This document shows positions 15,989 to 63,857 of a DNA stretch of 64,000 bases, piece by piece. Below the pieces are notes generated by a model. That model did no database searches. It saw only the letters and a program-made list of their open reading frames with translations, and had not been told where the DNA came from. The position numbers and the translations under genes were made by a program. Each line of letters starts with the position of its first letter. Position 1 is the first letter of the stretch. Source of the stretch: an uncultured Bacillota bacterium (GTDB taxonomy: Bacteria > Bacillota > Dehalobacteriia > UBA7702); assembly GCA_934702375.1 (NCBI GenBank), contig CAKUYE010000003.1, forward strand, positions 11,589 to 75,588. Direction: 5' to 3'.

Positions 15989-16003
15989 GTGTATTTTATA
16001 GCA

Positions 16004-16041
16004 AAAGCACCTGCCGATGGGGGCAGGTGCTTTCGTTTTTT
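16004..16041. terminator. bidirectional intrinsic terminator
   Basis: The stem AAAGCACCTGCC/GGCAGGTGCTTT is followed by a T-run. It lies between convergent genes. Confidence 0.8.
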
Positions 16042-19000
16042 TTATAGGGACAGGAATACGGAGATCATTTTTGCTGCTTGTGCTCTGGTGGCGTTGCCTT
16101 GAGGGGCGAAGGTGCCGTCGGGGAAGCCGCTGATGATGTTGGCTTGCTGCATGGCGGATACGGCTTCTTTGGCCCAGGCTGCGATCTCTGCTTCGTCGGT
16201 GAAGGTGATGGGTGCGTTTGTCTGGGGAAGGGTGATGCCTTTATAGTCGGCATATCGCTTGATCATGACTGCCATTTCCTGGCGAGTGATGTTGGCGTCG
16301 GGGGCGAATTGGGTGTCGCTCTTGCCGTAAACGATTTTGTTGGTGTAAGCCCAGTTGATGTTGGCTTTGGACCAATGGGCGTTGGCATCGGCAAAAACGC
16401 TGTCGCCGCTGTAGGCGGAAAGATCATCGCCGGAGGCATAAGCCAAAATCTTTACAAACTGACCGCGGGTAATCTTCCCTTCGGGATCAAAGGTGGTAGG
16501 CGTAATGCCGTTGATAATCCCTTTCCCTGCCAGGTCGTAAACGTAAGATACATACCAGGCATCGGCAGCTACATCGGAGAAGTTGACTTCCGGAGTCTTG
16601 GAAACAACCGTAATTTCGCAGGCAGCGGTTTTGCCTCCATCGGCTGTGGATACAGTGATGGTTGCTGTACCGGCTTTTACGGCGGTTACTTTGCCGTTGT
16701 CTACCGTGGCCACGGAAGCATCAGACGTTTTCCACGTAACGGCTTTGTTGGTAGCGTTGGCAGGCGCTACGGTTGCGGTTAAAGTGGTGTTACTTCCTTC
16801 TTCTAAGGACACTGTTGTTTGATCTAAGGTTACGCCGGTGACGTTGATGGCAGCCGGATCTTTTTTTATTACGATTACTACACAATCCGCGGATTTATTA
16901 CCGTCTGCTGTTGTAACTGTAATGACGGCTGTTCCGGCATTTACTGCAAAAACAGTGCCGTTATTAACAGTGGCAACCGAGGTATTTGAAGATTTCCACG
17001 TAACGGCTTTGTTGGTAGCGTTGGCAGGTGCAACAGTTGCGGTTAGCGTTGTGCTTCCGCCTTCCTCCAATGCAACAGAGAAAGAATCTAATGCAACAGA
17101 AGTGACATTGACAATACCCGGTGTCTTTTCGGTAACAGTTACTTTGCAAGTAGCGGTCTTATTGCCGTCGGCAGTGGTTACGGTGATGGTGGCGGTACCG
17201 GCATTTACCGCGGTAACTTTGCCGCTATCTACTGTGGCAACGGATGCATCGGAAGATTTCCACGTTACTGTTTTGTTTGTTGCGTTTGCAGGGGCTACGG
17301 TAGCCGTTAGTGTTGTGCTGCTACCCTTATCCAGGGTTATGGCCGACTTATCTAATGTTACTCCGGTTACATCAATATTTATGGGAGCATTCTTTTCTAC
17401 GATAAAGCCCATGTTTGCAATGTTATAAGTTGATCCTTCAACCGGAAGGTCATTCCATTGACCGTTCGATTTAAATATCATTGCGAAGTGCTCCGTACCC
17501 ATACTGGGTTCTTTTTCTGCCCAATTTGTATAGGTAAAGGATTCTCCGGATACCCAATGATATTTCTTTTGTGAATCAGCGAAATTACTTGCGCCGATCC
17601 AATAACAGGTTTTACTGCCGTTATTTTTAATTAAGTTATGAATTGCGGTATTTTCGTTTGCATCGGTAATGGATGTCAACTCGCCTCCCAGCCTTTTTGC
17701 GGCAAGGTTTGCGGTTCTCCAAGATGCAGGATTATCATATAGCTCGTAGATTTTTCCATTATATGTTACAGTGGAAACAGGTTTGTATGAACTCACATCT
17801 AGCTTATCAACAACCTTGATTGGTGCTTTATTACTAAAGGCGCTGATTCCGTTAGTACAACGTGCAAATACATAGATAGAGTAATCGCCGGTTTTATCCA
17901 TTTGGAAAGCGTAGTTGTTATCTTTTGTAATTGCGCTCTTGCATATATCACTCCAGCCGTAAGGGGCTTTGGTTACGTATACATAATAAGAGGTTGCGGT
18001 GGGAAGTTTTTCCCAGCGGGCAGTTACCAATCCGCCTTTTTCGGTGACGTCCGTATCTAGTTTAATGGTTGTTGCGCTTAGATTTGGCGGTACATTTGTC
18101 GTGCAGAAAAACTTGTGTGAAGTTAATACGGTTGTGTCTGTAGCATTTTTTACCTTAATGTAATAGAGGTACGCGGCTCCTGATTTTGTTTTTGTAAAGT
18201 CAAGCCGTTTTGTCCAATCGGCCAAATCTACGGTTCTGGTGCTACTGGAGGGTAGCAAAGAATATCCGGTTACAAGTCTGCCGCAGTCATCGTATAAATC
18301 GACAAGTACATATTCAATATCGCTTTTTGAGGTAATAGTTCCGCCGCAGGTAAAAGCTAACCCGGGGGTTCTATAAGCGGTAGGAAGCTGTAAGCCGCTC
18401 ACCGTTACGGTGGGTTCGGTAAAAGTTGTTTTGGGAGATATCGTAAAGGACGTAGTTACGGCGCTTCCTGTATATGCTTCGTTGACCGGTATCAATTCCG
18501 CGGTATAATTTCCGGCCTCTAAATTGTAGCCATAGAATATTTTGGATTGGGCAGCGGTATTGGATTGAAAATAGACGTTGACCCCATCTCGATACAGATA
18601 CAAGCGAAATGTCTCAACGTTATTACCTGTATAGGTAAATGTAACAGCGTCGCCTAGAGTATAATTTGTTGCCCCGGTTTTTAATGTTACTCCATTCGGT
18701 TTGCAGCAAGAATAATTGGCTAAATAACGAGTTTTTCCTGTATACCGTGTAGCACCGCAGGAACATTTTTGATATTCTCTATGAGGATGTGCTGCTTCAT
18801 ATTCGGTAGTGGCGTAGTTGTGTTGGTGGACTACTGTGGGGCATTTTCTTACCCATTCGAAATTTGTAATTTGGGATTTTGTAATGTATCTATCCCATTT
18901 GATGGAACAATCATAGCCATAATTGCCTTCGGCCAAAGATATTCCGCCATAGTTATTTACGGCAATAACAAACACTGAATGGCCATTGTAGCGAATAATA

Positions 19001-19539
19001 TCACCGACAGAAAGATTGTCTAAGGAATATTGTACTGTCCATGTGGACGGGCGTATACCGCCAGTATAATCATAACCTAGTTTGTATGCAAAACCAAAAC
19101 ATTGTATTCCGCCATCAAAGTAATTACAATCATATTGCCCCACGCTTGCAGTGCCATTATGAGTTGCGCATGGATATTGGGTAACGGTATCTGCATAGGC
19201 TTCATTGCGATTGATTATTAAGTTGTCACCGTTATTGCTAACTGCCGTGACTTTATGGTTCCAATGGTATCCGTTTGGAAATTTTGCTCTTAACTGTGCA
19301 ATAGTTAGTGCTGATGCGGAAGGTTTTACACTGTTTAAGCCAATCCCCTGAGAGTAAAGTGAAGGCTCTGTTGCATTTTGTTTTAAAAGGATATCTGACA
19401 CTGATTTGTTCTGTAATGATTGTGTTGCTATTGTTGATAATTCTGCATAAGGATCATTAGGCAAAGAACTTGCAGATACAGGCAATGAAATGTATAGGAC
19501 TAGAAGCATTACTAATATCATCTGCCAAAGCTTTTTCAT
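16042..19539 (-). CDS. S-layer-anchored multidomain surface protein: CHAP/NlpC-like cysteine peptidase, Ig/Fn3-like repeats, C-type lectin, 3x Big_2, 3x SLH
   Basis: It has a signal peptide and a Cys-His pair (GGIQCFGFAYKLGY ... GHSVFVIAV). A C-type lectin block follows (WRTANLAAKRLGGELTSI...YWIGAS...WNDLP). Three 87-aa Big_2 repeats and three C-terminal SLH repeats (FSDV..AWY.., F.P....TR.Q.A) complete it. Confidence 0.95.
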   Translation of the reverse strand: MKKLWQMILVMLLVLYISLPVSASSLPNDPYAELSTIATQSLQNKSVSDILLKQNATEPSLYSQGIGLNSVKPSASALTIAQLRAKFPNGYHWNHKVTAVSNNGDNLIINRNEAYADTVTQYPCATHNGTASVGQYDCNYFDGGIQCFGFAYKLGYDYTGGIRPSTWTVQYSLDNLSVGDIIRYNGHSVFVIAVNNYGGISLAEGNYGYDCSIKWDRYITKSQITNFEWVRKCPTVVHQHNYATTEYEAAHPHREYQKCSCGATRYTGKTRYLANYSCCKPNGVTLKTGATNYTLGDAVTFTYTGNNVETFRLYLYRDGVNVYFQSNTAAQSKIFYGYNLEAGNYTAELIPVNEAYTGSAVTTSFTISPKTTFTEPTVTVSGLQLPTAYRTPGLAFTCGGTITSKSDIEYVLVDLYDDCGRLVTGYSLLPSSSTRTVDLADWTKRLDFTKTKSGAAYLYYIKVKNATDTTVLTSHKFFCTTNVPPNLSATTIKLDTDVTEKGGLVTARWEKLPTATSYYVYVTKAPYGWSDICKSAITKDNNYAFQMDKTGDYSIYVFARCTNGISAFSNKAPIKVVDKLDVSSYKPVSTVTYNGKIYELYDNPASWRTANLAAKRLGGELTSITDANENTAIHNLIKNNGSKTCYWIGASNFADSQKKYHWVSGESFTYTNWAEKEPSMGTEHFAMIFKSNGQWNDLPVEGSTYNIANMGFIVEKNAPINIDVTGVTLDKSAITLDKGSSTTLTATVAPANATNKTVTWKSSDASVATVDSGKVTAVNAGTATITVTTADGNKTATCKVTVTEKTPGIVNVTSVALDSFSVALEEGGSTTLTATVAPANATNKAVTWKSSNTSVATVNNGTVFAVNAGTAVITVTTADGNKSADCVVIVIKKDPAAINVTGVTLDQTTVSLEEGSNTTLTATVAPANATNKAVTWKTSDASVATVDNGKVTAVKAGTATITVSTADGGKTAACEITVVSKTPEVNFSDVAADAWYVSYVYDLAGKGIINGITPTTFDPEGKITRGQFVKILAYASGDDLSAYSGDSVFADANAHWSKANINWAYTNKIVYGKSDTQFAPDANITRQEMAVMIKRYADYKGITLPQTNAPITFTDEAEIAAWAKEAVSAMQQANIISGFPDGTFAPQGNATRAQAAKMISVFLSL
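16591..17375 (-). repeat. three tandem ~261-bp coding repeats (Big_2 domains)
   Basis: There are three near-identical 87-aa units (VTGVTLD...TLTATVAPANATNK.VTWKSSD.SVATV..GKVTAV.AGTATITV.TADG.K). Confidence 0.8.
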
Positions 19540-19641
19540 TTTTTCCTCCGTTTTATGTTTTAAATAGACTTAGATTTGTTAACCTCGATGTGCTTTGGAG
19601 CCTTCCTGGCAGAAAGATTTGCCTCCTTTTTTGATTACCGG

Positions 19642-19678
19642 GGAAAATAAAAAGTGCTGTGTACGTTGTACACAGCAC
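19642..19678 (-). terminator. intrinsic terminator ~100 nt upstream of the SLH-protein start codon
   Basis: On the minus strand the 11-bp stem GTGCTGTGTAC-aac-GTACACAGCAC is followed by TTTTTATTTT. Confidence 0.7.
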
Positions 19679-19762
19679 CGGAATTGCTCCATATGCAAAC
19701 AAAGCCTTGTCAACTACGGAAAATCCCTTGAAAAATGGAAGAATTTACCGTATAATGAATAG

Positions 19763-19886
19763 GCGGTATGAGCAAGGGGAATATTATGATTATTCATTGA
19801 CTTGCTTTGGTTTAGGTGCTGCTTTCACCTTAGCTGACCTCTCGGTGCTGGTAACACCGGGAGGATGCCGCAATATTTTATTTTCC
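19763..19886 (+). ncRNA. candidate structured RNA, copy 1 (cloverleaf-like four-helix fold); strand uncertain
   Basis: TTGAAA-17-TATAAT (19728-19756) lies just upstream. The fold has P1 19763-69/19865-71, P2 19770-76/19801-07, P3 19814-30 and P4 19838-64, then a U-rich tail. G.U pairs fit only the + strand. Confidence 0.45.
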
Positions 19887-19916
19887 TCGGGTGGGAGGGA
19901 ATCCCACTCAATTCGT

Positions 19917-19945
19917 ATTATACGAAAATTCCATTGGATTTGCAA
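19917..19945 (-). promoter_or_regulatory. minus-strand promoter TTGCAA-17-TATAAT reading through element copy 1 toward the SLH gene
   Basis: The -35 is at 19945-19940 and the -10 at 19922-19917, with an exact 17-bp spacer. Confidence 0.55.
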
Positions 19946-20065
19946 GTGTTCTGGCATAATTTTTTCACAAAAAATCCAATATTGTAAGATAAAGGCAGGA
20001 GAATGCTGTATTTGAAAGAAAAATGAAATCCGTGGGGCAGCGTTTCCTTTCCTTATCCTTCCCTG

Positions 20066-20105
20066 CGGAAAACAAAAAGTGCTGTACTCTTTTGGGGTAC
20101 AGCAC
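20066..20105 (-). terminator. intrinsic terminator ending the distal (copy 2) minus-strand unit
   Basis: On the minus strand the stem GTGCTGTAC/GTACAGCAC is followed by TTTTTGTTTT. The shared context CAGCACTTTTTnTTTTCC also appears at the 19642-19678 terminator. Confidence 0.7.
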
Positions 20106-20198
20106 TGATATTTCTATCTAACACAAATCAGACCACCTACCTGATTATCGACGTTAAAAACACTTGAAAAGCAAGGGTTTTTAACGTATAATAGGTAT

Positions 20199-20297
20199 GC
20201 GGTGTGCGCCTTTCGGCGCTGACTTAGGTGCTGTTATCACCTGACGAACCCTGCGGTGCTGGTAACACCAAAGGGACGCCGCGTTATTTTATTTTCC
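20199..20297 (+). ncRNA. candidate structured RNA, copy 2 (paralog of 19763-19886); strand uncertain
   Basis: TTGAAA-17-TATAAT (20164-20192) lies just upstream. The fold has P1 20199-205/20276-82, P2 GCGCC-UUUC-GGCGC, P3 20226-42 and P4 20249-75, then the tail GUUAUUUUAUUUUCC. Confidence 0.45.
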
Positions 20298-20305
20298 GTA
20301 TTATA

Positions 20306-20334
20306 ATCATACCCGAAATCCCGGGAATTTTCAA
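20306..20334 (-). promoter_or_regulatory. minus-strand promoter TTGAAA-17-TATGAT reading through element copy 2
   Basis: The -35 is at 20334-20329 and the -10 at 20311-20306, with a 17-bp spacer. Confidence 0.5.
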
Positions 20335-20455
20335 GTGATTCCCATAAAAAATATTAAAAATCGCTTTATTTTGATATTCCTCTCTTTTCCGCAACAGAGG
20401 GTTGCTTTGTTTTCTCTTGATGTTATGCTATACTTAGGAATAGAGAGGTGATGAA

Positions 20456-20902
20456 ATGGAAACGAAAGATGTTATTTTGGCGCTCCGGGCAAAGCAGGGG
20501 CTTTCCCAGGAGGAGCTGGCAGAAAAGGTGTTTGTTACAAGGCAGGCGGTATCCCGATGGGAAACGGGAGAAACGATTCCCAATACCGAGACGTTAAAGC
20601 TGCTGTCGAGGCTCTTTGAGGTATCCATCAATACTCTTTTAGGTTCTCCGCAAAAATTGATTTGTCAATGCTGCGGTATGCCCTTGGAGGATGTCGTGAT
20701 AAGCCGAGAGCCCGATGGATCTTTTAATGAGGAATACTGCAAGTGGTGTTATGCCGATGGGGCCTTTACCTATACAGATATGGAAACGCTGATTGACTTT
20801 TGCGTTGCTCATATGGCAAATGAGAATTGGTCCGGAGAGCAGGTGCGTGGTCATATGGAGGCATTGCTGCCCCGGCTGAACCATTGGAAATCAGAAAAAT
20901 AG
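20456..20902 (+). CDS. XRE HTH regulator fused to a C-terminal zinc-ribbon domain
   Basis: The HTH is GLSQEELAEKVFVTRQAVSRWETGETIP. The C-terminal part has a CQCCGMPL...YCKWCY cysteine pattern. Confidence 0.85.
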   Translation: METKDVILALRAKQGLSQEELAEKVFVTRQAVSRWETGETIPNTETLKLLSRLFEVSINTLLGSPQKLICQCCGMPLEDVVISREPDGSFNEEYCKWCYADGAFTYTDMETLIDFCVAHMANENWSGEQVRGHMEALLPRLNHWKSEK

Positions 20903-20925
20903 AAGAGATGCTACCTATATAATTA

Positions 20926-20960
20926 TAATATCCGGCTTATTTGGCCGGATATTATTTTAT
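20926..20960 (+). terminator. intrinsic terminator
   Basis: The stem AATATCCGGC/GCCGGATATT is followed by ATTTTATT. Confidence 0.7.
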
Positions 20961-21053
20961 TACAGAGCGTGATAATGGATATGGGTTTTCATTGATTTTC
21001 CCCTGCTTATGGCGTATACTAATCAGTATCGAAAAAGGAAGCAGGGTTGTTGG

Positions 21054-22799
21054 ATGAAGAATCTTAAAAATTACCTGAAACCATATAAAAAGGAATGTAT
21101 TTTGGCCCCGGGTTTTAAGCTTTTAGAGGCGGTTTTTGATTTGCTGGTGCCTTTGGTGGTGGCCCGGATGATTGATACGAATATCTTAGGCGGCAGCCGC
21201 GGAACAGTGTTTCTCTATTTTGGGGTGCTGTTGCTGATGGCGGCGGTGGGCCTTGGCTGCACGGTGCTGGCTCAGTATTTTTCCGCCAATGCCAGCACCG
21301 GGTTTGCCGGGGCTTTGCGCCAGGGGCTTTTTGAGCATATCCAGAAATTTTCCTACAGTGATTTGGACACGCTTGGCAGCGATACTTTGATTACCCGACT
21401 TTCCGATGATGTGAATCAGGTGCAAACCGGTTTGAATATGGGGCTGCGGCTGCTGCTGCGAAGCCCCTTTATCGTGATGGGGGCGATGGTGATGGCTTTT
21501 ACCATTGATCTCCGCTGCGCTCTCGTCTTTGCGGTAACGATTCCCATTCTCTTTGCCGTGACTTTTTTTCTTATGAAAATCAGCATTCCCCTCTTTGGCA
21601 GAGTTCAGGCGGGATTGGATCGGGTTACGACTTTGACACGGGAAAATCTTACCGGCGTTCGGGTGATTCGTGCCTTTTGCCGGGAAGAACAGTCCATCGA
21701 GGAATTTGAAGGGAGCAACCGGGAGCTGACCCGGCTCAATCTTTTTGTGGGACGCATTTCCGCGCTGCTGAATCCTTTGACCTACGCTTTTATCAATATA
21801 GCGGCGGTGATTTTGATTCATCAGGCTGCAATACAAGTAAATCTCGGTGTGATTCCCCAGGGGGAGGTTGTGGCTCTCTATAACTATATGCTCCAGATCA
21901 TTGTGGAACTGGTGAAGCTGGCTGCGCTGATTATTACCTTAAATAAGGCCCTGGCTTGTGCTAAAAGAACCTCGGCTGTGCTGGCGATTGCTCCGGAGAT
22001 GGACTATCCGGAGACCGATGCATCGGAGGATAAAGGCTCTGCCGCCGTGGCCTTTGAGGATGTTTCCTTTACTTATCCCCGGGGCGGTGCGCCTAGTTTG
22101 CGCCATATCTCCTTTACCGCCAAGGTCGGGGAAACGGTGGGGATCATCGGCGGTACCGGCAGCGGGAAAACGACGCTGGTTCATTTGATCCCCCGGTTTT
22201 ACGATGCTACCGAAGGCCGGGTTGTTGTTTTTGGCAGGGATATGAAAAGTGTTACCGCAAAAACTCTTTGTGATGCCGTTGGCATCGTGCCCCAAAAGGC
22301 GGTGCTGTTTCAAGGCAGTATTCGGGAGAATCTGCGGTGGGGCAATGAAAAGGCTACCGATGAAGAGCTTTGGCAAGCCTTGGAAATCGCCCAGGTAAAG
22401 GATGTGGTGGAAGCCAAAAGCGGCGGCCTTGATTTTCGATTGGAGCAGGGGGGAAGTAATCTTTCCGGTGGTCAAAGGCAGCGACTTACCATTGCCCGGG
22501 CTTTAGTGAAAGGAGCGCCGATTTTGATCCTTGACGATAGCTCCAGCGCATTGGACCAGGCCACCGATGGGGCTTTGCGGAAAGCCCTTGGCGCTCTTTC
22601 CGGCGTTACGACCTTTATTGTTTCTCAACGGATCGTGTCCGTTCGCGATGCCGATAAGATATTGGTGCTCCACAACGGAGAGCTTGTGGGCTGCGGTAAC
22701 CACGAGGATTTGATGGAACATTGTCGGATTTATCGGGAAATCTATGCTTCCCAATTTCCCGAGGATGCTGCATCTCGGCAGAAAGGGGGTAAGCGGTGA
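21054..22799 (+). CDS. ABC exporter, fused permease/ATPase subunit (heterodimeric multidrug-type, first subunit)
   Basis: A six-TM domain is followed by Walker A GGTGSGKTT, the signature LSGGQRQR and Walker B ILILDD. The ORF opens at 21009; I prefer the ATG at 21054 (MKNLKNYL). Confidence 0.9.
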   Translation: MKNLKNYLKPYKKECILAPGFKLLEAVFDLLVPLVVARMIDTNILGGSRGTVFLYFGVLLLMAAVGLGCTVLAQYFSANASTGFAGALRQGLFEHIQKFSYSDLDTLGSDTLITRLSDDVNQVQTGLNMGLRLLLRSPFIVMGAMVMAFTIDLRCALVFAVTIPILFAVTFFLMKISIPLFGRVQAGLDRVTTLTRENLTGVRVIRAFCREEQSIEEFEGSNRELTRLNLFVGRISALLNPLTYAFINIAAVILIHQAAIQVNLGVIPQGEVVALYNYMLQIIVELVKLAALIITLNKALACAKRTSAVLAIAPEMDYPETDASEDKGSAAVAFEDVSFTYPRGGAPSLRHISFTAKVGETVGIIGGTGSGKTTLVHLIPRFYDATEGRVVVFGRDMKSVTAKTLCDAVGIVPQKAVLFQGSIRENLRWGNEKATDEELWQALEIAQVKDVVEAKSGGLDFRLEQGGSNLSGGQRQRLTIARALVKGAPILILDDSSSALDQATDGALRKALGALSGVTTFIVSQRIVSVRDADKILVLHNGELVGCGNHEDLMEHCRIYREIYASQFPEDAASRQKGGKR

Positions 22800-24190
22800 T
22801 GTCGGTACAAAGAAAACAAAGAAAAGACGAAGAAACCAAAACGGGATTCTTCGTGCTGAAAAAGCTATTGCCCTATGCCCTTCGGCATAAAGGCGCCTTG
22901 GGTTTGAGCTTGTTGCTGGCAATTGCTGCGGTGGTGATGCAGCTGTATATTCCCATCCTCTTTGGCAAGGCCATTGACCATGTTGTTGCTGCGGGAAAAG
23001 TGGATTTTGCCGGTATGTGGGTTTATCTCCGCCGGATTCTGTTTTTTGCCGTGGCGGCGGCCCTGGCCACCTGGTGGATGAACCTGTTGAATAATCGCAT
23101 TACCTATGGTATTTTACGGGATTTGCGTTCCCAAGCTATGGCCCATATTCAAAAATTGCCTTTGGCTTATCTGGATAAGCATAGCTCCGGGGATATTGTC
23201 AGCCGTATCGTTACCGATACCGACGTTATTGCCGATGGGCTGCTTTTGGGGTTTAGCCAGCTTTTTGCCGGTGTTGCTCTTGTGGGTGTGTTGCTGATTC
23301 CCGGCGGCAGTCTTACCGTTGGCGGTCTTTCCGCATTGTTGGCCTATGCTAATCAATATATGAAGCCCTTTAACGATATCAGTGCCGTGGTAACGGAATT
23401 GCAGAATACTCTGGCTTGTGCCAATCGTGTTTTTGAGCTGCTGGAAACGCCTGCGGAAACTCCCGATGCCCCAGAGGGAATTGCCGAGGTAAAGGGGCAG
23501 GTAGATTTTTCTCATGTGTTCTTTTCCTATGACCCGGAGCGGCCTCTCATTGAGGATTTGGATCTGCAGATATCGCCGGGGATGCGTGTGGCCATCGTAG
23601 GCCCTACCGGCTGCGGAAAAACCACGTTGATCAACCTCTTGATGCGCTTTTACGATGTAAATGACGGCTCTATCGCCCTGGATGGCACGCCGATTGATCA
23701 GATATCCCGCCATGCCCTCCGCAGCAGCTTTGGCATGGTCTTGCAGGAAACCTGGCTGAAAAACGGCACGGTGCGAGAGAATATCTGCTTTGGCCGCCCC
23801 GATGCTGCCGAGGAAGATATTATTGCCGCCGCCAAAGCGGCCCATTGCTGGGAGTTTATCCAGCGGCTGCCTGCAGGCCTTGATACGGTGCTGACGGAAA
23901 ACAGCCTTAGCCAAGGTCAAAAGCAGCTGCTGTGCATTGCCCGGGTCATCCTCTGCCGTCCGCCGATGTTGATTTTGGACGAAGCCACTTCCAGTATTGA
24001 CACTCATACCGAAATGCAGATCCAAAAGGCCTTCGATGCCCTAATGGAAGGCCGCACCAGCTTTGTTGTGGCCCACCGGCTTTCCACCATCCGAGATGCT
24101 TCCCTGATTCTGGTGATGAAGGATGGGAAAGTTGTGGAGAGGGGGGTGCATAGTGATTTAGTTGGTGCAGGGGGGTGTACAGTAAATTAA
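22796..24190 (+). pseudogene. ABC exporter second subunit with ~120-aa internal TMD deletion and aberrant C-terminus (probably decayed)
   Basis: Walker A (GPTGCGKTT) sits at residue ~270, against ~390 in the partner. The sequence jumps from the start of TM3 (GFSQLFAGVALVGVLLI) to the post-TM6 block (GGSLTVGGLSALLAYANQYMKPFNDIS). It ends GAGGCTVN* after a G6 run. Confidence 0.55.
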
Positions 24191-24222
24191 CGTTGGGCGC
24201 GCGGGCGCGCTAAACGCACAGA

Positions 24223-24789: not shown

Positions 24790-24981
24790 CCAACCTGTGA
24801 TGGGGAGGGCAGGGGAGAGAATCTCTCCCTGTGGAAGCCGGTGAGAACCCGGAGCTTAACCGTTAGCCGTATTGCGAAAGTTTGTACAACATAGGGCGAA
24901 AGCCGCCATTGTGGGAATCCATGAGAAGGTTGTGTACAGGCGCAGAGGGAAAACCTCGAGATCGCTAAGCCGGAAGACTTG
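24790..24981 (+). promoter_or_regulatory. cobalamin-riboswitch-like leader (divergent)
   Basis: Three blocks match the cobalamin consensus and the canonical copy at 63678-63836: GGAAGCCGGUGAGAACCCGG (24833-52), GCCAUUG-hairpin-AGAAGG (24905-29) and AAGCCGGAAGACUUG (24967-81). The central CCCGCnACUGU core is poorly conserved. Confidence 0.5.
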
Positions 24982-25075: not shown

Positions 25076-25157
25076 TTGGCGCACAAAGCCCTTGCTGCGC
25101 ACCGGGGTCTCAACGTCACTCATAGAATTTTTATTTGGAAAGGATGGAAAAAGGATC

Positions 25158-28100
25158 ATGAACAAAAAACTTATCGTTCTGGTCTGCGTGCTGATCAGCG
25201 TATTTGCTTTCAGTGCCGGTATTTTCGCTGCCGACCCCACTCCCTGGGATGGCACCGTAGATACCAGCTGGTACAGCACGGACAAAACAAGTTTTGAAAT
25301 CAACGATGCAAAACAGCTGGCCGGGTTGGCGGCCATCGTAAATGGTACGGCAAAAGATATCACCAAAGATACCTTCGCCGGAAAAACCGTTTCTCTTACT
25401 GCCGACCTGGATCTTGGCGGTGTGAAGAAATCCAATGGGAAATTGGAAGGAACGGCTTACGTTCCCAGCGTTTGGGAAGGCCAAAATTGGACACCTATTG
25501 GGAGAAATACCTGGTCTGATTACTTTCAGGGAACTTTTGATGGTAAGAATCACACGATCCGCAACTTATATATCAACAGTACTTCCGGTTATATCGGGTT
25601 ATTTGTGTGTATTGGCGGTACAGTGAAGGATCTTAATCTGGAAGATGGTTTTGTGACTTCTTCCAATAGCTATAACCCCAATGGTGCTCTTGCCGGTAGA
25701 GTCAACAGCGGTTGTTTCGTATATCATTGTAGCAGCAATGTAGAAACTTTTATGAAAAGCTACGGCGGTACCGGTCTTGTTGGGAATAACTCCGGTACTA
25801 TTGCCTATTGTTCCAATAGCGGTACTATGTACAGCACCAGCTATAATGTAGGCGGTATCGTCGGGCAATCTGCCGGCGGGAAGGTTGTCAGCTCATTTAA
25901 CAGCGGTATTGTTAAAGGTACCTACAACCTTGGCGGTATTGTCGGAAAAATAGGAAGCGGTACTTTTTCGATCGTAAATTGCTATAACGTTGGTGAAATA
26001 AACGGCTTTAGCAGCAGAGGGAATTACGCCGGTGGTATTGCAGGTTATTCTGCTTCGGCTGGAAATCTTGTTGCCAATTGCTACAATGCCGGTAAATTGA
26101 CTAATTTAGATGCAGAGGGTGTACAGTCGAAGAACGCTGTTGGTGCTCTTGTCGGCGGCAAAGCCATTGGTTCCTCGAATAACCTTTATCTTGCCGTCGG
26201 AGATTTAAAAGGTCTTGGCAGTACCGATAATGGCAGCTCTGATATTTTGGGTATGAGCGGTATTGCTGCCGATGCTTTGAAAAATTCCGAAGCAGATCTG
26301 GGCAGTGCCTATACCGCAGACAGTTCTAACATTAACAATGGCTATCCGATCTTGACCTGGCAGAAGGATGGCAAATATTCTACGGAACTGAAAGAAACGG
26401 AAGGGCTGGATATTGCCGAAATCAAGGACGCTACCAACAAGGGCTTTACGGTAGTGATGAGCGATCTTTTGTATTACTCTACTTTGAGCGAGGATGACTT
26501 TACCGTAGAAGCTATGGTAAACGGTACAAAGGCGGATGTTATATCTCTTCGCGGTTCCTATGTCTTGACGGAATACAACGGAAAAGTTGTCAGCGCCTTT
26601 ACTTTTACCTTTGATAATATGAAGCCCGAAGCAGACATCGTTTATTCCGTAAAATACAAAGAAAATGCGGCTAAGACCTATTCTTTCCGTTCTCCTGCAA
26701 CGGATCAGTGGTATGATTATGTTGCTGATGGTGTCTCCGGTACCGGCACCAAGGATGATCCTTATCGGATCTCCACGGCGGAAGAACTCTCTTACTTCGC
26801 TCGTTTTGCTCCGAGCAGCAAGTATAATGGTGAATACGTTGTTTTGACCAACGATATTGATATGGGGGCAAAATACTGGACGCCATTTGAATTTAGGGGA
26901 AATCTTGACGGTCAGAACTATGCGATCAAAAACCTGAAAATTGATGATGCCAACGGTGACTACTTTAACGGTGGATCCGGTTTGTTTTCCTCGATTGCTA
27001 TGAGCAGCAGTTACATGGGAAAAGAAGTCAGTTATATTTCGAATCTACGTTTTATTGATCCGGATGTAAAAGGTACTTACAGTGTCGGTATTTTAGCCGG
27101 AACGGTTTGCAATACCTTTGTTGAAAACTGTTCTGTTACCGGTGGTAAAGTGAGCACCAATGACTTAAATTACTATGCCGGCGGTCTTGTGGGAAGCGCA
27201 GATAGTGAAACGGATATGACCACGGTCTTCCGTCGTTGTTCTGTTGATTTGGATCTTTACACTCATGGCTGCGGCGGCAGCGTTGTTGGACATGTCAATC
27301 ATGGCAATACGAGCTACGGTTCTCTGTACATTGTTGATTGCCAAAGCTCCGGTACTGTGACTTCCGACAGCGCGGCAAAGAATAGCCAAGTAGGCGGCAT
27401 TCTTGGTAATGTTTGGAGACTCAAAGGTGTTGTTATTGAAAATTGCTATAGTGATGCAACCTTATCTACTACCGGTACTTGCGCCGGCGGTATTGTTGGT
27501 AAGGTGTTTGTCAGCGGTAACAGCAACCAGTATATTGGCCCTGACGGTATCACCATTAAAAACTCTGTTGCCCTGAATCCCTCGGTAAAAACTACAGAAC
27601 CTACCGGTAAGGCCGGTCGAATCGTTGCGGATGCCGATGACATTGTTGGTGCAACCAAAGGTTATTTTGATCAAAACTATGGTTTAGATACTATGGACGT
27701 TGCCGGTGGTCTTAGTATGGATATTGGCGGTTCAGGTACCGATGTCACCAAGGCCGAAGCGGAAACCAAGGAATTTTGGGCTTCCAAAGTGGGCTTCGAT
27801 TTCTCCGAAAACGGTGCCTGGATCTGGGACGACGCTCAGAAAAAACCGGTTTTGAATCATGATAGAAAAGCTGAAATCAAGGTCGTTATTGACCGTCAGC
27901 CTGCCGATGCTACCGCCTATCGCAATCAGCCTGCGCTCTTTGGGGTTGTGCCTTCCGGCGGTACAATGAACTACAACTATCAGTGGGAATCCAGCACCGA
28001 TGGGGAAACCTGGACTGCCGTGGAAAGCGGTACAGCACAGACATTGTCCATTGCCTTTGATGGTGGTTACACCGGCGGGACTCTCTTCCGTTGCGTTGTT

Positions 28101-30509
28101 ACCGATGGTGCCGGATTTACTGCAACCAGTGATTCTGCAAAGCTCAGTATTGTTTTGGCAAAATATACGCCGAAGGATGCTGTAAAAGCATTAAAGAACT
28201 ATTATGCTGAAAAGGGCACTCTTGACACTGCCCGAGAAGCTTTTGCCGCGAAGGATCTTTTAGGCGATATTACAGATTTAAATGTCAACTTGCCTTTTAG
28301 CTCTACCTATATCGGTGTTTCTTCTCTTGATTACGAAAAATTCATTACGCCCTCTTGGCTCTTTATGGATTCCTATGCTTTAGGCAACGATCCTCATCAA
28401 TATGTCAAAGTGGATGGCGGTCTTGTAGAAATTGCAGATGCTTTCCAATGGATTTTGGGCGCACAGGATGCGGAAACCGGCGTTATTACCGGGTTGACCT
28501 ATAAGGACAAAGACTATAACTATATGCCTTCTTTCATTACCGCAATGGAAATGTACTATCAGGGACAACCCTGGGGCAATGAAAAAGAAGGAACCAAACT
28601 TGGTTGTGACGGTGCCATCGAATATACTTTTGCGCAGCTGGTGGATCACGAATGCGGCGGGAAAACCTATGGTAAGCTTTCAAAGACTTATACCGGTAAT
28701 AACTTTAATGATCTAATTGCTCAGTCGGAATTCATCATGTTGATGGCTCGTTTGTCCGATGACCCTGTTTACGGTGAACAGGCCCAAGAAGCAATGGGTG
28801 ATGTATTGAAGACGATGGAATATCTTTATGAAGAAACCACTGTCCTCAATAAATATGTGGAACCCTTTGGTTTCTATGCTTCGGCTCTCTTTGCTGCTGC
28901 CGACACTACCGACAGCTACTTTGAAAAATCGGCTTATTTGGATATGGCACAGAGAGTGATTACCGAAAAGATTATGCCTTCGGTCGCTGCCGATGGTGGT
29001 TACAGTAAAGAAGTTGGGAAACAGGATATTTCCGGCGATCCTTATGCTACCGTTGCCGCTACCATGGCTTTGGCCGATTATGTAAAAGAAAAATCCTATG
29101 TCAGCTCCTTTGATTATGTACTTTCCGATGTTGATGCAGTAGCTCGAGACCTTGCTGCGATTGATTTGGGATCGGTTATCGTTGGTGATCTTGATTTACC
29201 GACAATAGGCCAATATGGCAGCACCTTCACTTGGGAAAGCTCCGATCAGAAGATTATTGATGCAAAGACCGGTAAGGTCAATCGTTTTGCCACCGACCAG
29301 GCTGTTACATTGACGGTTACCGCTGTGAAAGGGAAGGAAACGGCCAGCCGTATTATTAATGTAACGGTCAAAGCCGATGCCGATAATGATACCGATAACG
29401 TAGATGCGGTACTTTCCGGTTTGCAGATACCCTTTATGGCGATCAGTGATATCACGGTTCCCGATTCTTCCGTTGAGGGGGTATCTCTTGTTTGGACTTC
29501 CAGCAATTCCGATGTTCTTGGCATTGACGGTAAAGTGACTCGTCCTGCCATTGGTGCAGAGGATGCGGTTGTAACGCTTACTGCCACTGCGACTCAAGGG
29601 AATGTTACCAAAACCAAAGACTTTTCGGTAACGGTTTACGCACTGAGCAACGATTCTTTAAAAGAAGGTTACTATCTTACCCAGAGTAAGTATTTGGCCG
29701 ATCGAGCCATTAAAGGGTATTGGAGTATTTTTGCAGCTTATGCGGCTCTTGGTGATTATATTACCGACCCAGACAATGGCTATAGCTTTGTATTAGCATC
29801 TCCTCAGGCAAATTGGTATGGCGTTCAGTACGGTGCCACCGTTATGGCTCTTTGCGCCATGGGAGAAAATCCATACAATTATAACGGTGAAAACTGGGTG
29901 CAAAAGCTGTATGATAATTTTGGTGATCCCTATGCCGGCGGTCTCTACTCTGCCTTTGGTATGGAAGCAGCCGGTGCCAACAGCACTTTATATACTCCTG
30001 CCGGTGATTATCAAGTTGGCCAGCTTTCGGAAAAGAGCATGATATATGGTATTGATATTTCCGGTTGGGCTTCGGTCTTAGTTGCAAAACATCATGACTT
30101 CCCCGGTTATGAAGAAAGTAATGCTGCTGCATTGAAAGCATGGCTCAACTATCTGAAAGGGTTGGGGATCGACTCCGATGGTAACTTTGTCGGTTGCAAC
30201 GATATCTCCACCGGTTGTGCCATTACCGGTTTCGCCGCTCTTTACAGCATTGGTATGACTGATGTTGATCCTGCCCTTGATACCTGGAAAAATGCGGCTA
30301 CAGGTAAAGGTATCATCGATGCCATCTATGAACAGGGGCTTGTTGAAGACAGAATCCCCGGCTACATGACTCAGATGGAAATGGCTATCTGTGATATGTA
30401 CAATGCTAAATACAATGGCAGCACCTCCACGGCAAAGATGGGAACATATTCGATCCCAAAGGCAGTACCACCAGAGCGGAAGTTGCCGCGGTGCTCCACC
30501 GTTTCCTGA
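25158..30509 (+). CDS. giant secreted protein: 2x GLUG/beta-helix-like modules, Ig-like domains, two alpha/alpha-toroid (prenyltransferase/transcobalamin-alpha-like) regions
   Basis: The ATG at 25158 has GGAAAAAGGA upstream and is followed by a signal peptide (MNKKLIVLVCVLISVFAFSAGIFA). FQGTFDGKNHTIRNL and repeated GGIVG/GGLVG units suggest GLUG-type repeats. Two small Ig-like units are present (GSTFTWESSD...VTLTVTA). DGGY and DSDGNF helical repeat regions suggest the toroids. Confidence 0.9.
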   Translation: MNKKLIVLVCVLISVFAFSAGIFAADPTPWDGTVDTSWYSTDKTSFEINDAKQLAGLAAIVNGTAKDITKDTFAGKTVSLTADLDLGGVKKSNGKLEGTAYVPSVWEGQNWTPIGRNTWSDYFQGTFDGKNHTIRNLYINSTSGYIGLFVCIGGTVKDLNLEDGFVTSSNSYNPNGALAGRVNSGCFVYHCSSNVETFMKSYGGTGLVGNNSGTIAYCSNSGTMYSTSYNVGGIVGQSAGGKVVSSFNSGIVKGTYNLGGIVGKIGSGTFSIVNCYNVGEINGFSSRGNYAGGIAGYSASAGNLVANCYNAGKLTNLDAEGVQSKNAVGALVGGKAIGSSNNLYLAVGDLKGLGSTDNGSSDILGMSGIAADALKNSEADLGSAYTADSSNINNGYPILTWQKDGKYSTELKETEGLDIAEIKDATNKGFTVVMSDLLYYSTLSEDDFTVEAMVNGTKADVISLRGSYVLTEYNGKVVSAFTFTFDNMKPEADIVYSVKYKENAAKTYSFRSPATDQWYDYVADGVSGTGTKDDPYRISTAEELSYFARFAPSSKYNGEYVVLTNDIDMGAKYWTPFEFRGNLDGQNYAIKNLKIDDANGDYFNGGSGLFSSIAMSSSYMGKEVSYISNLRFIDPDVKGTYSVGILAGTVCNTFVENCSVTGGKVSTNDLNYYAGGLVGSADSETDMTTVFRRCSVDLDLYTHGCGGSVVGHVNHGNTSYGSLYIVDCQSSGTVTSDSAAKNSQVGGILGNVWRLKGVVIENCYSDATLSTTGTCAGGIVGKVFVSGNSNQYIGPDGITIKNSVALNPSVKTTEPTGKAGRIVADADDIVGATKGYFDQNYGLDTMDVAGGLSMDIGGSGTDVTKAEAETKEFWASKVGFDFSENGAWIWDDAQKKPVLNHDRKAEIKVVIDRQPADATAYRNQPALFGVVPSGGTMNYNYQWESSTDGETWTAVESGTAQTLSIAFDGGYTGGTLFRCVVTDGAGFTATSDSAKLSIVLAKYTPKDAVKALKNYYAEKGTLDTAREAFAAKDLLGDITDLNVNLPFSSTYIGVSSLDYEKFITPSWLFMDSYALGNDPHQYVKVDGGLVEIADAFQWILGAQDAETGVITGLTYKDKDYNYMPSFITAMEMYYQGQPWGNEKEGTKLGCDGAIEYTFAQLVDHECGGKTYGKLSKTYTGNNFNDLIAQSEFIMLMARLSDDPVYGEQAQEAMGDVLKTMEYLYEETTVLNKYVEPFGFYASALFAAADTTDSYFEKSAYLDMAQRVITEKIMPSVAADGGYSKEVGKQDISGDPYATVAATMALADYVKEKSYVSSFDYVLSDVDAVARDLAAIDLGSVIVGDLDLPTIGQYGSTFTWESSDQKIIDAKTGKVNRFATDQAVTLTVTAVKGKETASRIINVTVKADADNDTDNVDAVLSGLQIPFMAISDITVPDSSVEGVSLVWTSSNSDVLGIDGKVTRPAIGAEDAVVTLTATATQGNVTKTKDFSVTVYALSNDSLKEGYYLTQSKYLADRAIKGYWSIFAAYAALGDYITDPDNGYSFVLASPQANWYGVQYGATVMALCAMGENPYNYNGENWVQKLYDNFGDPYAGGLYSAFGMEAAGANSTLYTPAGDYQVGQLSEKSMIYGIDISGWASVLVAKHHDFPGYEESNAAALKAWLNYLKGLGIDSDGNFVGCNDISTGCAITGFAALYSIGMTDVDPALDTWKNAATGKGIIDAIYEQGLVEDRIPGYMTQMEMAICDMYNAKYNGSTSTAKMGTYSIPKAVPPERKLPRCSTVS

Positions 30510-63656: not shown

Positions 63657-63677
63657 TTCTATAATGAAATGAAATAT

Positions 63678-63836
63678 GTTTTACGGTGCCTCGGGAGAGG
63701 AGAATAGGGAAACAGGTTAGATTCCTGTACGGACCCGCCGCTGTGAGCAGCTGTTGATACCGCATAATGCCATTGCGAAAGCGAGAAGGCGCGGCAATTC
63801 GGATAAAGCTGTAAGTCAGAAGACCTGCCATAAAAC
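63678..63836 (+). promoter_or_regulatory. cobalamin (B12) riboswitch
   Basis: It reads AAUAGGGAAACAGGUUAGAUUCCUGUACGGACCCGCCGCUGU, then GCCAUUGCGAAAGCGAGAAGG, then the B12 box AAGUCAGAAGACCUGCC. The closing stem is GUUUUA/UAAAAC. Confidence 0.85.
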
Positions 63837-63857
63837 GAATGATCTCGAAATGAAGGT

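Follow-up and report, generated by a model that had tools for sequence, protein, structure and literature searches.

Tandem predicted small RNA genes, nested antisense in terminator-flanked units upstream of a surface-protein gene of a gut Bacillota bacterium, appear related to an undescribed phage RNA family

Transcription attenuation mediated by antisense RNA is known for plasmid replication genes, as exemplified by RNAIII of pIP501, RNAI/II of pT181 and the system of pAMbeta1. Other antisense RNAs, such as sar (P22 arc-ant), c4 (P1/P7 icd-ant) and RNAII of pMV158 (CopG-RNAII-repB), complement a ribosome-binding region. The icsA gene of Shigella flexneri encodes a surface-exposed outer-membrane protein. 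The antisense RNA RnaG causes premature termination of the icsA mRNA, together with convergent-promoter interference, and the icsA product is named an invasion protein in this case (PMC2879508). For pIP501, attenuation by RNAIII is reported to require a U-turn loop and two loop pairs (PMC4981023). According to a review of 2014, antisense-driven attenuation had by then not been observed for chromosome-encoded small RNAs (sRNAs) of low-GC Gram-positives (PMC4152353). The present analysis concerns a 64-kb stretch ("the window") of contig CAKUYE010000003.1 from an uncultured Bacillota bacterium and, in this stretch, a 693-nt block (19642-20334) containing two tandem RNA elements upstream of a surface-protein gene; all coordinates given without an L number are window positions. 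Sequence comparisons indicate that both elements are plus-strand sRNA genes, probably representing the chromosomal variant of a family, so far undescribed, of antisense sRNAs with two hairpins from gut Bacillota phages. The explanation that we favor, with moderate confidence, is that two tandem plus-strand sRNA paralogs are nested antisense in minus-strand promoter-to-terminator units. That such an antisense pair gates the surface-protein gene specifically is a more tentative proposal, drawn from position.

The two units are paralogs located 425-436 bp apart in the intergenic space (19540-20455) that separates the surface-protein gene (minus strand) from an XRE-type gene (plus strand). Their alignment revealed that terminator arms and tails, promoter hexamers, helices P1, P3 and P4 and the U-tail are common to both units and that P2 and the spacers differ. 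Judging from this alignment, the parts kept between paralogs are exactly the functional-looking ones. The plus-strand features are the following:

19763-19886, plus strand: predicted sRNA gene copy 1, P1-closed four-helix fold followed by a U-rich tail (P1 19763-19769 / 19865-19871; P2 19770-19807; P3 19814-19830; P4 19838-19864)
20199-20297, plus strand: predicted sRNA gene copy 2, paralog with a short P2 (GCGCC-UUUC-GGCGC) and a U-rich tail (P1 20199-20205 / 20276-20282; P2 20206-20219; P3 20224-20244; P4 20249-20275)
19728-19756, plus strand: predicted sigma-70-type promoter of sRNA copy 1, TTGAAA-17-TATAAT, 11/12 matches to the consensus
20164-20192, plus strand: predicted sigma-70-type promoter of sRNA copy 2, TTGAAA-17-TATAAT, 11/12 matches to the consensus

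A check of the sequence found the promoters, helices, U-tails and terminators of the original prediction all in place. In both copies, the predicted start is the first base of P1 and the four-helix fold is followed by the tail UUAUUUUAUUUUCC, which gives a predicted length of about 100-125 nt. The fold of copy 1 reaches -46.4 kcal/mol (z -4.15) on the plus strand versus -33.1 kcal/mol on the minus strand; for copy 2, the plus-strand value (-39.1 kcal/mol, z -2.87) is nearly equaled by the minus strand (-37.6). As had been proposed, the G.U pairs of the stems (5/38 in copy 1 and 2/27 in copy 2) fit the plus strand only, being A.C mismatches on the other one. Therefore, the G.U pairs, the energy of copy 1 and the plus-strand-only match of a covariance model (R1, described below) indicate that the predicted four-helix fold is a plus-strand structure. 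Compensatory changes had also been claimed for P1, P2 and P4. The comparison of the two copies bears this out for P1 (one A-U to G-C swap) and for the lower stem of P4 (two swaps) and not for P2, which is replaced by an unrelated hairpin. Since only two copies can be compared, this covariation is thin. The loop of P4 is CUGGUAA in both copies, and those of P3 are CUGCUUU and CUGUUAU, or CUGUGUU in strain variants. No match to the elements was found in Rfam, either at gathering thresholds or with E values up to 10, in agreement with the earlier statement that no named RNA class fits them, and ARAGORN detected no tRNA at the elements. Reading of the sequence revealed no small open reading frame (ORF) kept between the copies on either strand, the candidates differing in frame and start codon. 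The only ORF of at least 60 aa at the locus (19659..20015, plus strand) spans copy 1 and has no equivalent in copy 2.

The motif GGTGCTGNNNNCACC, with at most one mismatch, occurs six times in the 64 kb versus 0.43 expected (about 14-fold), and five of these six occurrences lie inside the locus. The promoter count by itself is not significant (5 observed versus 3.1 +/- 1.7 in shuffles); the weight given to the promoters comes from their identical placement in both paralogs and from their retention in strain variants. Seven strain variants from human-gut assemblies were compared (L127 and L175-L179 among the loci). The hexamers of the plus-strand promoter of copy 1 are kept in the paralog, and its sole variable site among the seven strains is in the spacer. 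An inverted repeat (20151-20187) spans the -35 box of the promoter of copy 2. It should also be mentioned that an extended CACTTGAAAA-like motif is common to the -35 regions of all four promoters of the locus (19720-19734, 19935-19947, 20156-20170 and 20328-20340; CCCTTGAAAA in one of them), and may be the signature of a common regulator or sigma factor.

A metagenome scan for the architecture of two hairpins plus a T-run, in which the loops were left free, gave a single match, L126, whose two loops are again GUAA, i.e. CUGGUAA. The contigs of homologs of the L126 neighbor protein and three viral scans with relaxed stems provided about 30 gut-phage or prophage loci that carry a related sRNA gene and share one gene plan (L126, L135, L136, L138-L144 and L148-L173; for example, L152 6079-6160 and L135 2821-2905, both on the minus strand). 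Early viral scans that demanded GGTGCTG stems had returned nothing, or coding noise only, and the family surfaced only once the stems were relaxed and the loop kept. A scan of genome contigs for GGTGCTGN4CACC-N6-24-GGTGCTGN4CACC gave, among the matches listed, only high-GC coding tandem repeats. The phage genes successively include: (i) a sigma-70-type promoter, (ii) a variable 5' end, (iii) a hairpin, H1, with an invariant tip GUG-CUGGUAA-CAC on a variable lower stem, (iv) a second hairpin, H2, with a CUGGUAA loop on a covarying stem (GGUG/CACC, ACUG/CAGU, UCCG/CGGA or GCCG/CGGC), and (v) a U-run immediately after H2, forming a terminator. When scanned with the first loop left free, 28/28 phage loci fit the pattern of two CUGGUAA loops. 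Among 19 distinct phage sequences, 94.7% of cells are paired versus 71.2% in shuffles (none of 500 being as high), sliding the partner columns lowers this proportion to 36-51%, and 12 of the 17 pairs show changes on both sides. This pairing indicates that the phage set is a genuine structured RNA family. It is absent from Rfam 15, no Rfam match was obtained at the phage loci, and BLAST of representative phage sRNAs against GenBank phages found no similar sequence. The CUGGUAA loop, which has a YUNR-type start (CUGG), is invariant even though the stems and seeds differ between phages. The suggestion that P3 and P4 are a repeated unit with a common GGUG stem thus holds for the repetition, with which the phage homologs agree, and not for the stem, since the invariant part is the 7-nt loop.

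In every locus mapped, the phage sRNA gene is on the opposite strand to a downstream gene, X, and lies just upstream of it. X encodes either a 120-130-aa protein, and then follows a small gene judged by eye to be RHH-like (no Pfam or PHROG match), or an integrase of the tyrosine or serine type, and then follows a cI-like repressor gene and accessory genes. The gene located upstream of the sRNA is co-oriented with X and stops inside the sRNA terminator. The 126-aa neighbor protein belongs to a family of more than 3,600 members that has no Pfam or PHROG match. From phage to phage, three segments change in concert: the one antisense to the Shine-Dalgarno region of X, a complementary segment of the promoter spacer and the 5' end of the sRNA. 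This 5' end pairs with the Shine-Dalgarno region of X in 10/15 loci at -12.7 to -21.3 kcal/mol, versus -5 to -8 in shuffles. Because of their antisense position upstream of X and this Shine-Dalgarno complementarity, the phage sRNAs look like antisense or anti-Shine-Dalgarno regulators. By analogy, their layout may be understood as a variable seed on an invariant scaffold, as in translation repressors of the sar, c4 or RNAII type. Two other observations concern these phages. At L163 (7652-7725, minus strand), one hairpin tipped with GUGCUGGUAACAC, with a U-run behind it, is an ordinary gene terminator, showing that the hairpin module also occurs singly. Furthermore, in some of the phages, tRNA arrays (Asn, Met, Ile, Phe, Gly, Ser) are found within a few kb of the sRNA gene (L135 92-505, L139 2368-3085 and L143 2238-2540).

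The covariance model R1 was built from the phage sequences alone, excluding those of the window. It matches copy 1 at 19802-19881 (43.4 bits, E 1e-11) and copy 2 at 20214-20292 (27.8 bits, E 1e-6), in both cases on the plus strand only, and its next best match in the 64 kb reaches 11.5 bits. In these alignments, P3 corresponds to H1 and P4 to H2, and a 21-nt identity links P4 of copy 1 to H2 of many phages. Independently of how the set was seeded, the phage sequences form a genuine RNA family whose layout also comprises these two hairpins. The window copies have their own predicted promoter on the strand of the sRNA, and several traits set them apart from their phage relatives: (i) their 5' end is not a free seed but pairs with the 3' end as P1, closing a four-way junction, (ii) the loop of P3, the equivalent of H1, has drifted and keeps only CUG, so that they do not carry two CUGGUAA loops, (iii) the 7-nt 3' strand of P1 and a further 4-5 nt stand between P4 and the U-run, and (iv) no ORF is adjacent to them. 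Neither the 64-kb window nor the roughly 420 kb of related loci searched contained a further copy, and BLAST of the locus against plasmids and GenBank phages returned nothing.

On the minus strand, each element is enclosed by a predicted promoter and a terminator, so that the predicted minus-strand RNAs would be perfect antisense partners of the sRNAs. The corresponding features and the two bordering genes are the following:

19917-19945, minus strand: predicted promoter of minus-strand RNA 1, TTGCAA-17-TATAAT, 10/12 matches, convergent with sRNA copy 1 and invariant among strains
20306-20334, minus strand: predicted promoter of minus-strand RNA 2, TTGAAA-17-TATGAT, 10/12 matches
19642-19679, minus strand: predicted intrinsic terminator T1 (stem 19679-19653, 12 bp with 6 G-C; U-tail 19652-19642)
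20066-20106, minus strand: predicted intrinsic terminator T2, paralogous to T1 (stem 20106-20078; U-tail 20077-20066)
19642-19910, minus strand: predicted minus-strand RNA 1, about 265 nt, fully antisense to sRNA copy 1 and its promoter; fold z -7.7
20066-20299, minus strand: predicted minus-strand RNA 2, about 230 nt, antisense to sRNA copy 2; fold z -9.6
19889-19909: hairpin between the tail of sRNA copy 1 and the minus-strand promoter (5' hairpin of minus-strand RNA 1 if read on that strand); no equivalent in copy 2
16042-19539, minus strand: surface-protein gene, 1165 aa, with Lectin_C, Big_2 and SLH domains by Pfam; candidate regulated gene
20456-20902, plus strand: XRE-type gene (zinc ribbon in the product); two ABC exporter genes come next

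The stem of T1 is followed by TTTTTATTTT and the hairpin of T2 by CTTTTTGTTTTCC on the minus strand, the only one on which U-runs follow these hairpins, apart from a weak plus-strand tail of T2; the scan had scored the T2 hairpin on the plus strand. A strain substitution at 19658 in T1 gives a U.G pair on the minus strand and a C.A mismatch on the plus strand, and the single change of T2 among strains is a 1-nt indel in its loop. Since the substitution keeps pairing only on the minus strand and both paralogs keep the hairpins, T1 and T2 look like functional minus-strand terminators. The promoter of minus-strand RNA 2 has four variable sites, three of them in the spacer; the fourth (20308, in the -10 hexamer) is changed only in L175. 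A 15-nt inverted repeat (CCGGGGAAAATAAAA / TTTTATTTTCCTCGG) bounds unit 1, by which the 5' A-tract of minus-strand RNA 1 is complementary to its 3' U-tract (93%). When the nascent minus-strand RNA was folded without the 3' arm of its terminator, the 5' arm paired in both units with the antisense of P3 (GGUGCUGU or GUGCUGU with GCAGCACC or ACAGCAC). In these models, the pairing represents a possible antiterminator, which would be lost once the sRNA is bound. The distance from the end of the T1 tail to the GGAGG of the surface-protein gene is 92 nt, close to the 100 nt first estimated, and the absence of a separate promoter for this gene was also borne out: a promoter scan and reading of the sequence found no convincing sigma-A-type promoter from 19642 to 19539.

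The comparison of the strain variants showed that the 693-nt block is 97.1-99.6% identical between pairs of strains. In three diverged strains, identity is 94-95% for the coding DNA of the XRE and ABC genes and 73-95% for the flanking non-coding DNA. Variable sites number 27 (3.9%) in the 693-nt block, 26 in the 102-nt 5' untranslated region (5'UTR) of the surface-protein gene and 39 in the 121 nt upstream of the XRE gene; there are none in the stems of P1, P3 and P4. The whole block is thus under strong purifying selection. The surface-protein gene itself undergoes allelic replacement, its product having 734, 748, 1165 or 1280/1281 aa depending on the strain, and homology breaks about 10 codons into the ORF. 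In sister species (L181 and L182, whose ribonucleotide reductase is 80-83% identical), the CrcB-HD-GATase synteny is kept and the block made of the surface-protein gene, the RNA units and the XRE and ABC genes is missing at the syntenic site (L181-L185 searched). This block (window positions of about 16000-24200, possibly further) is therefore a species-specific island. A weak R1 match in L181 was rejected as an ordinary terminator. XRE homologs with at most 81% identity (L129 and L130) are not accompanied by the RNA element. From the sequences compared, the RNA units appear as the most constrained part of a species-specific and otherwise fast-changing surface-protein locus. Within the highly variable 5'UTR of the surface-protein gene, an invariant 33-nt block (19599-19631) contains an AAGGAGG motif and a hairpin (GGCA-N8-UGCC); this block may act in translation or as a promoter recognized by another sigma factor.

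In the mechanism that we propose, the plus-strand sRNA would pair with the nascent minus-strand RNA, starting from the U-turn-like loops of P3 and P4. This pairing, together with convergent transcription, would set the passage of minus-strand transcription across the terminators into the surface-protein gene: binding of the sRNA would remove the pairing of the terminator arm with the P3 antisense and favor termination, and convergent transcription would add interference. Since no sigma-A-type promoter was found between T1 and the start of the surface-protein gene, read-through from the minus-strand promoters across T1, or across T2 and T1, would be the simplest route for its expression. The antisense reading of the original prediction is favored by the plus-strand fold, the phage homology and the minus-strand terminators, and its other part, control of the gene, comes from position. 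We infer transcription of both strands, the interaction between the two RNAs and the surface-protein gene as their target.

Several points weigh against this explanation. Both transcripts are predictions. Part of the R1 score is circular because the phage set was gathered with window-derived patterns, and termination of the plus-strand RNA is uncertain as its U-run stands behind P1 and not behind the H2-like hairpin. The window sRNAs have no phage-type anti-Shine-Dalgarno 5' seed, and their pairing with the start regions of the surface-protein or XRE genes is no better than that of shuffles; apparent 7-8-nt matches to these regions are not kept in strain L127. The candidate antiterminator is long-range and spans 7-8 bp, the local terminator (12 bp) is far stronger, and no covariation of the antiterminator is seen from one unit to the other; since this alternative helix is short and weaker than the terminator, the antitermination step is hypothetical. 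The chromosomal form is found in one species only, and P1 and P2 therefore rest on two paralogs. Finally, the 100-nt leader that holds the 19599-19631 block could contain an unrecognized promoter of the surface-protein gene.

This last point is also part of the best surviving alternative, which we consider rather unlikely. According to it, the elements are independent sRNA genes acting in trans (on the plus strand and perhaps also on the minus strand) on targets located elsewhere, the promoter of the surface-protein gene is unrecognized, for instance hidden in the invariant 33-nt block of its 5'UTR, and the adjacency is incidental, resulting for example from joint arrival on the island. The phage relatives are indeed discrete sRNAs with seed regions, strong terminators end both minus-strand RNAs, and the whole block is missing from the syntenic site of the sister species. 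However, no sigma-A-like promoter was found in the interval from 19642 to 19539, the plus-strand sRNA has little single-stranded seed, and the convergent promoter pairs are precisely kept in both paralogs, which points to a cis relationship.

A very improbable explanation is that the elements act at the DNA level, as a phage attachment site or remnant, an operator array or a miniature transposable element ending in short inverted repeats. It would account for the 21-nt identity between P4 of copy 1 and H2, which adjoins phage integrase genes, for the 15-nt inverted repeat that bounds unit 1 and for the location on a species-specific island. However, the inverted repeat simply corresponds to two terminator tails, no target-site duplication is visible at the ends, and the searched 64 kb and 420 kb contain no other copy. 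The covarying stems and the asymmetric loop rather fit an RNA. The attachment-site version was rejected from the gene maps, which place the RNA gene inside the phage genome, antisense upstream of int, between the integrase gene and the repressor module, or between the RHH gene and gene X, and not at a prophage end.

The least probable explanation, also put forward in the original prediction and not supported here, is that of tandem riboswitch-like or protein-binding attenuators whose minus-strand leader fold would sense a ligand or a protein: each unit does have the order promoter, structured region, terminator, then gene, the minus-strand units fold at low z scores and the invariant loops could bind a factor, but the fold is antisense to the leader, seven G.U pairs would become A.C mismatches, R1 matches the plus strand only and its homologs are free-standing sRNAs, the fold and the terminator have no strand in common and are about 80 nt apart, with a promoter in between, the presence of a promoter in each unit departs from tandem riboswitches, and even the permissive Rfam search gave no match.

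Returning to the favored antisense pair, two observations concern the borders of its locus. A terminator-like hairpin (20391-20413, plus strand; GCAAC-AGAGG-GTTGC, then TTTGTTTT) is conserved in strain L127 apart from changes in the loop; as judged from its sequence, it would insulate the XRE gene from plus-strand read-through of sRNA copy 2. Just 3' of it lies an extended -10 promoter for the XRE gene (TGcTATACT, 20426-20434, plus strand). Elsewhere, the window carries two cobalamin riboswitches on the plus strand (24833-24978, 33.4 bits, and 63667-63846, 107.4 bits). The first one lies upstream of a 1805-aa aBig_2 surface-protein gene (25092-30509) and of a DUF4430 gene, which suggests a B12-regulated locus for surface capture of B12.

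This work reveals an RNA family absent from Rfam 15, with about 30 phage examples and probably many more given the size of the neighbor protein family. It offers a simple design rule, in which a variable anti-Shine-Dalgarno 5' seed is joined to an invariant two-hairpin scaffold. At a locus where strains swap the surface-protein gene, its chromosomal form is the best conserved part. Should this form gate the gene, an abundant, uncultured lineage of gut Clostridia would possess an RNA switch for surface variation, and antisense-mediated attenuation would have a chromosomal example in Bacillota. Otherwise, it would still be a clean case of a phage regulatory RNA adopted by a host chromosome. A broader and improbable extension is that the paired hairpins with anticodon-loop-like CUGGUAA loops are a widespread Bacillota-phage scaffold read by a common cellular partner, protein or RNA, and that a domesticated, tandem, P1-closed form would attenuate transcription of a strain-variable S-layer-type protein gene through antisense RNA. 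In Proteobacteria, Hfq-binding modules read by a shared partner provide a parallel for such a scaffold.

Some known RNAs resemble the elements only in part. The four-way junction closed by a 7-bp helix and the 5-bp stems with 7-nt loops are tRNA-like, and CUGGUAA reads like the anticodon loop of tRNA-Thr(GGU). By contrast with tRNAs, the elements have neither the signature of a D or T loop nor a CCA context, and the phage hairpins stand on long variable stems. A mimic of the anticodon arm of tRNA-Thr(GGU) was rejected: ARAGORN and Rfam were negative and the tRNAs found near the phage sRNA include no Thr. A literature search with the loop sequence returned miR-200 papers only. A T-box was also rejected, as no Rfam match was found and the GGGUGGUAC stretch of L126 is not kept in its relatives. 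Type I toxin-antitoxin systems (par of pAD1 and bsrG/SR4; PMC4152353) resemble the predicted arrangement of the elements in their convergent overlapping small transcripts, each with a terminator, and in a YUNR-type recognition loop, but the elements have no conserved small ORF on either strand.

The phage relatives lie in antisense orientation behind a small gene of repressor type (RHH or cI-like) and ahead of a second gene, and, like sar, c4 and RNAII, they are complementary to the ribosome-binding region of this second gene. Their sequence and fold are nevertheless unrelated, and Rfam scans of the window and the phage loci, which we assume to include the C4 models, gave no match. Unlike these three RNAs, the window copies have neither an adjacent ORF nor an anti-Shine-Dalgarno seed. 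RnaG is, like the predicted sRNAs, a cis-antisense RNA made convergently in a gene leader, but it is 450 nt long and belongs to a Gram-negative host, and the icsA terminator forms only when RnaG is bound, whereas the window terminators are predicted to be stable without a partner. There is also a likeness in layout with pIP501, pT181 and pAMbeta1, where a multi-hairpin antisense RNA is expressed from a promoter within the sense leader, promoters are convergent and an intrinsic terminator is located in the sense leader upstream of the regulated ORF. In silico, both window units likewise have convergent promoters that are kept in paralogs and strains, and T1 and T2 lie downstream of the overlap and upstream of the ORF. 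The plasmid RNAs are recognized through two loop pairs and a U-turn loop, to which the likeness of the window lies in predicted loops. Their alternative between preemptor and terminator is well defined, whereas the alternative pairing in the window is weak and predicted. The window also differs from the plasmid systems in being chromosomal, tandem and located upstream of a surface-protein gene, with no sequence or Rfam relationship to them. Taken as a whole, a phage-type cis-antisense sRNA is a known kind of regulator, the family is new to Rfam, and its P1-closed, tandem, terminator-flanked chromosomal form is new.

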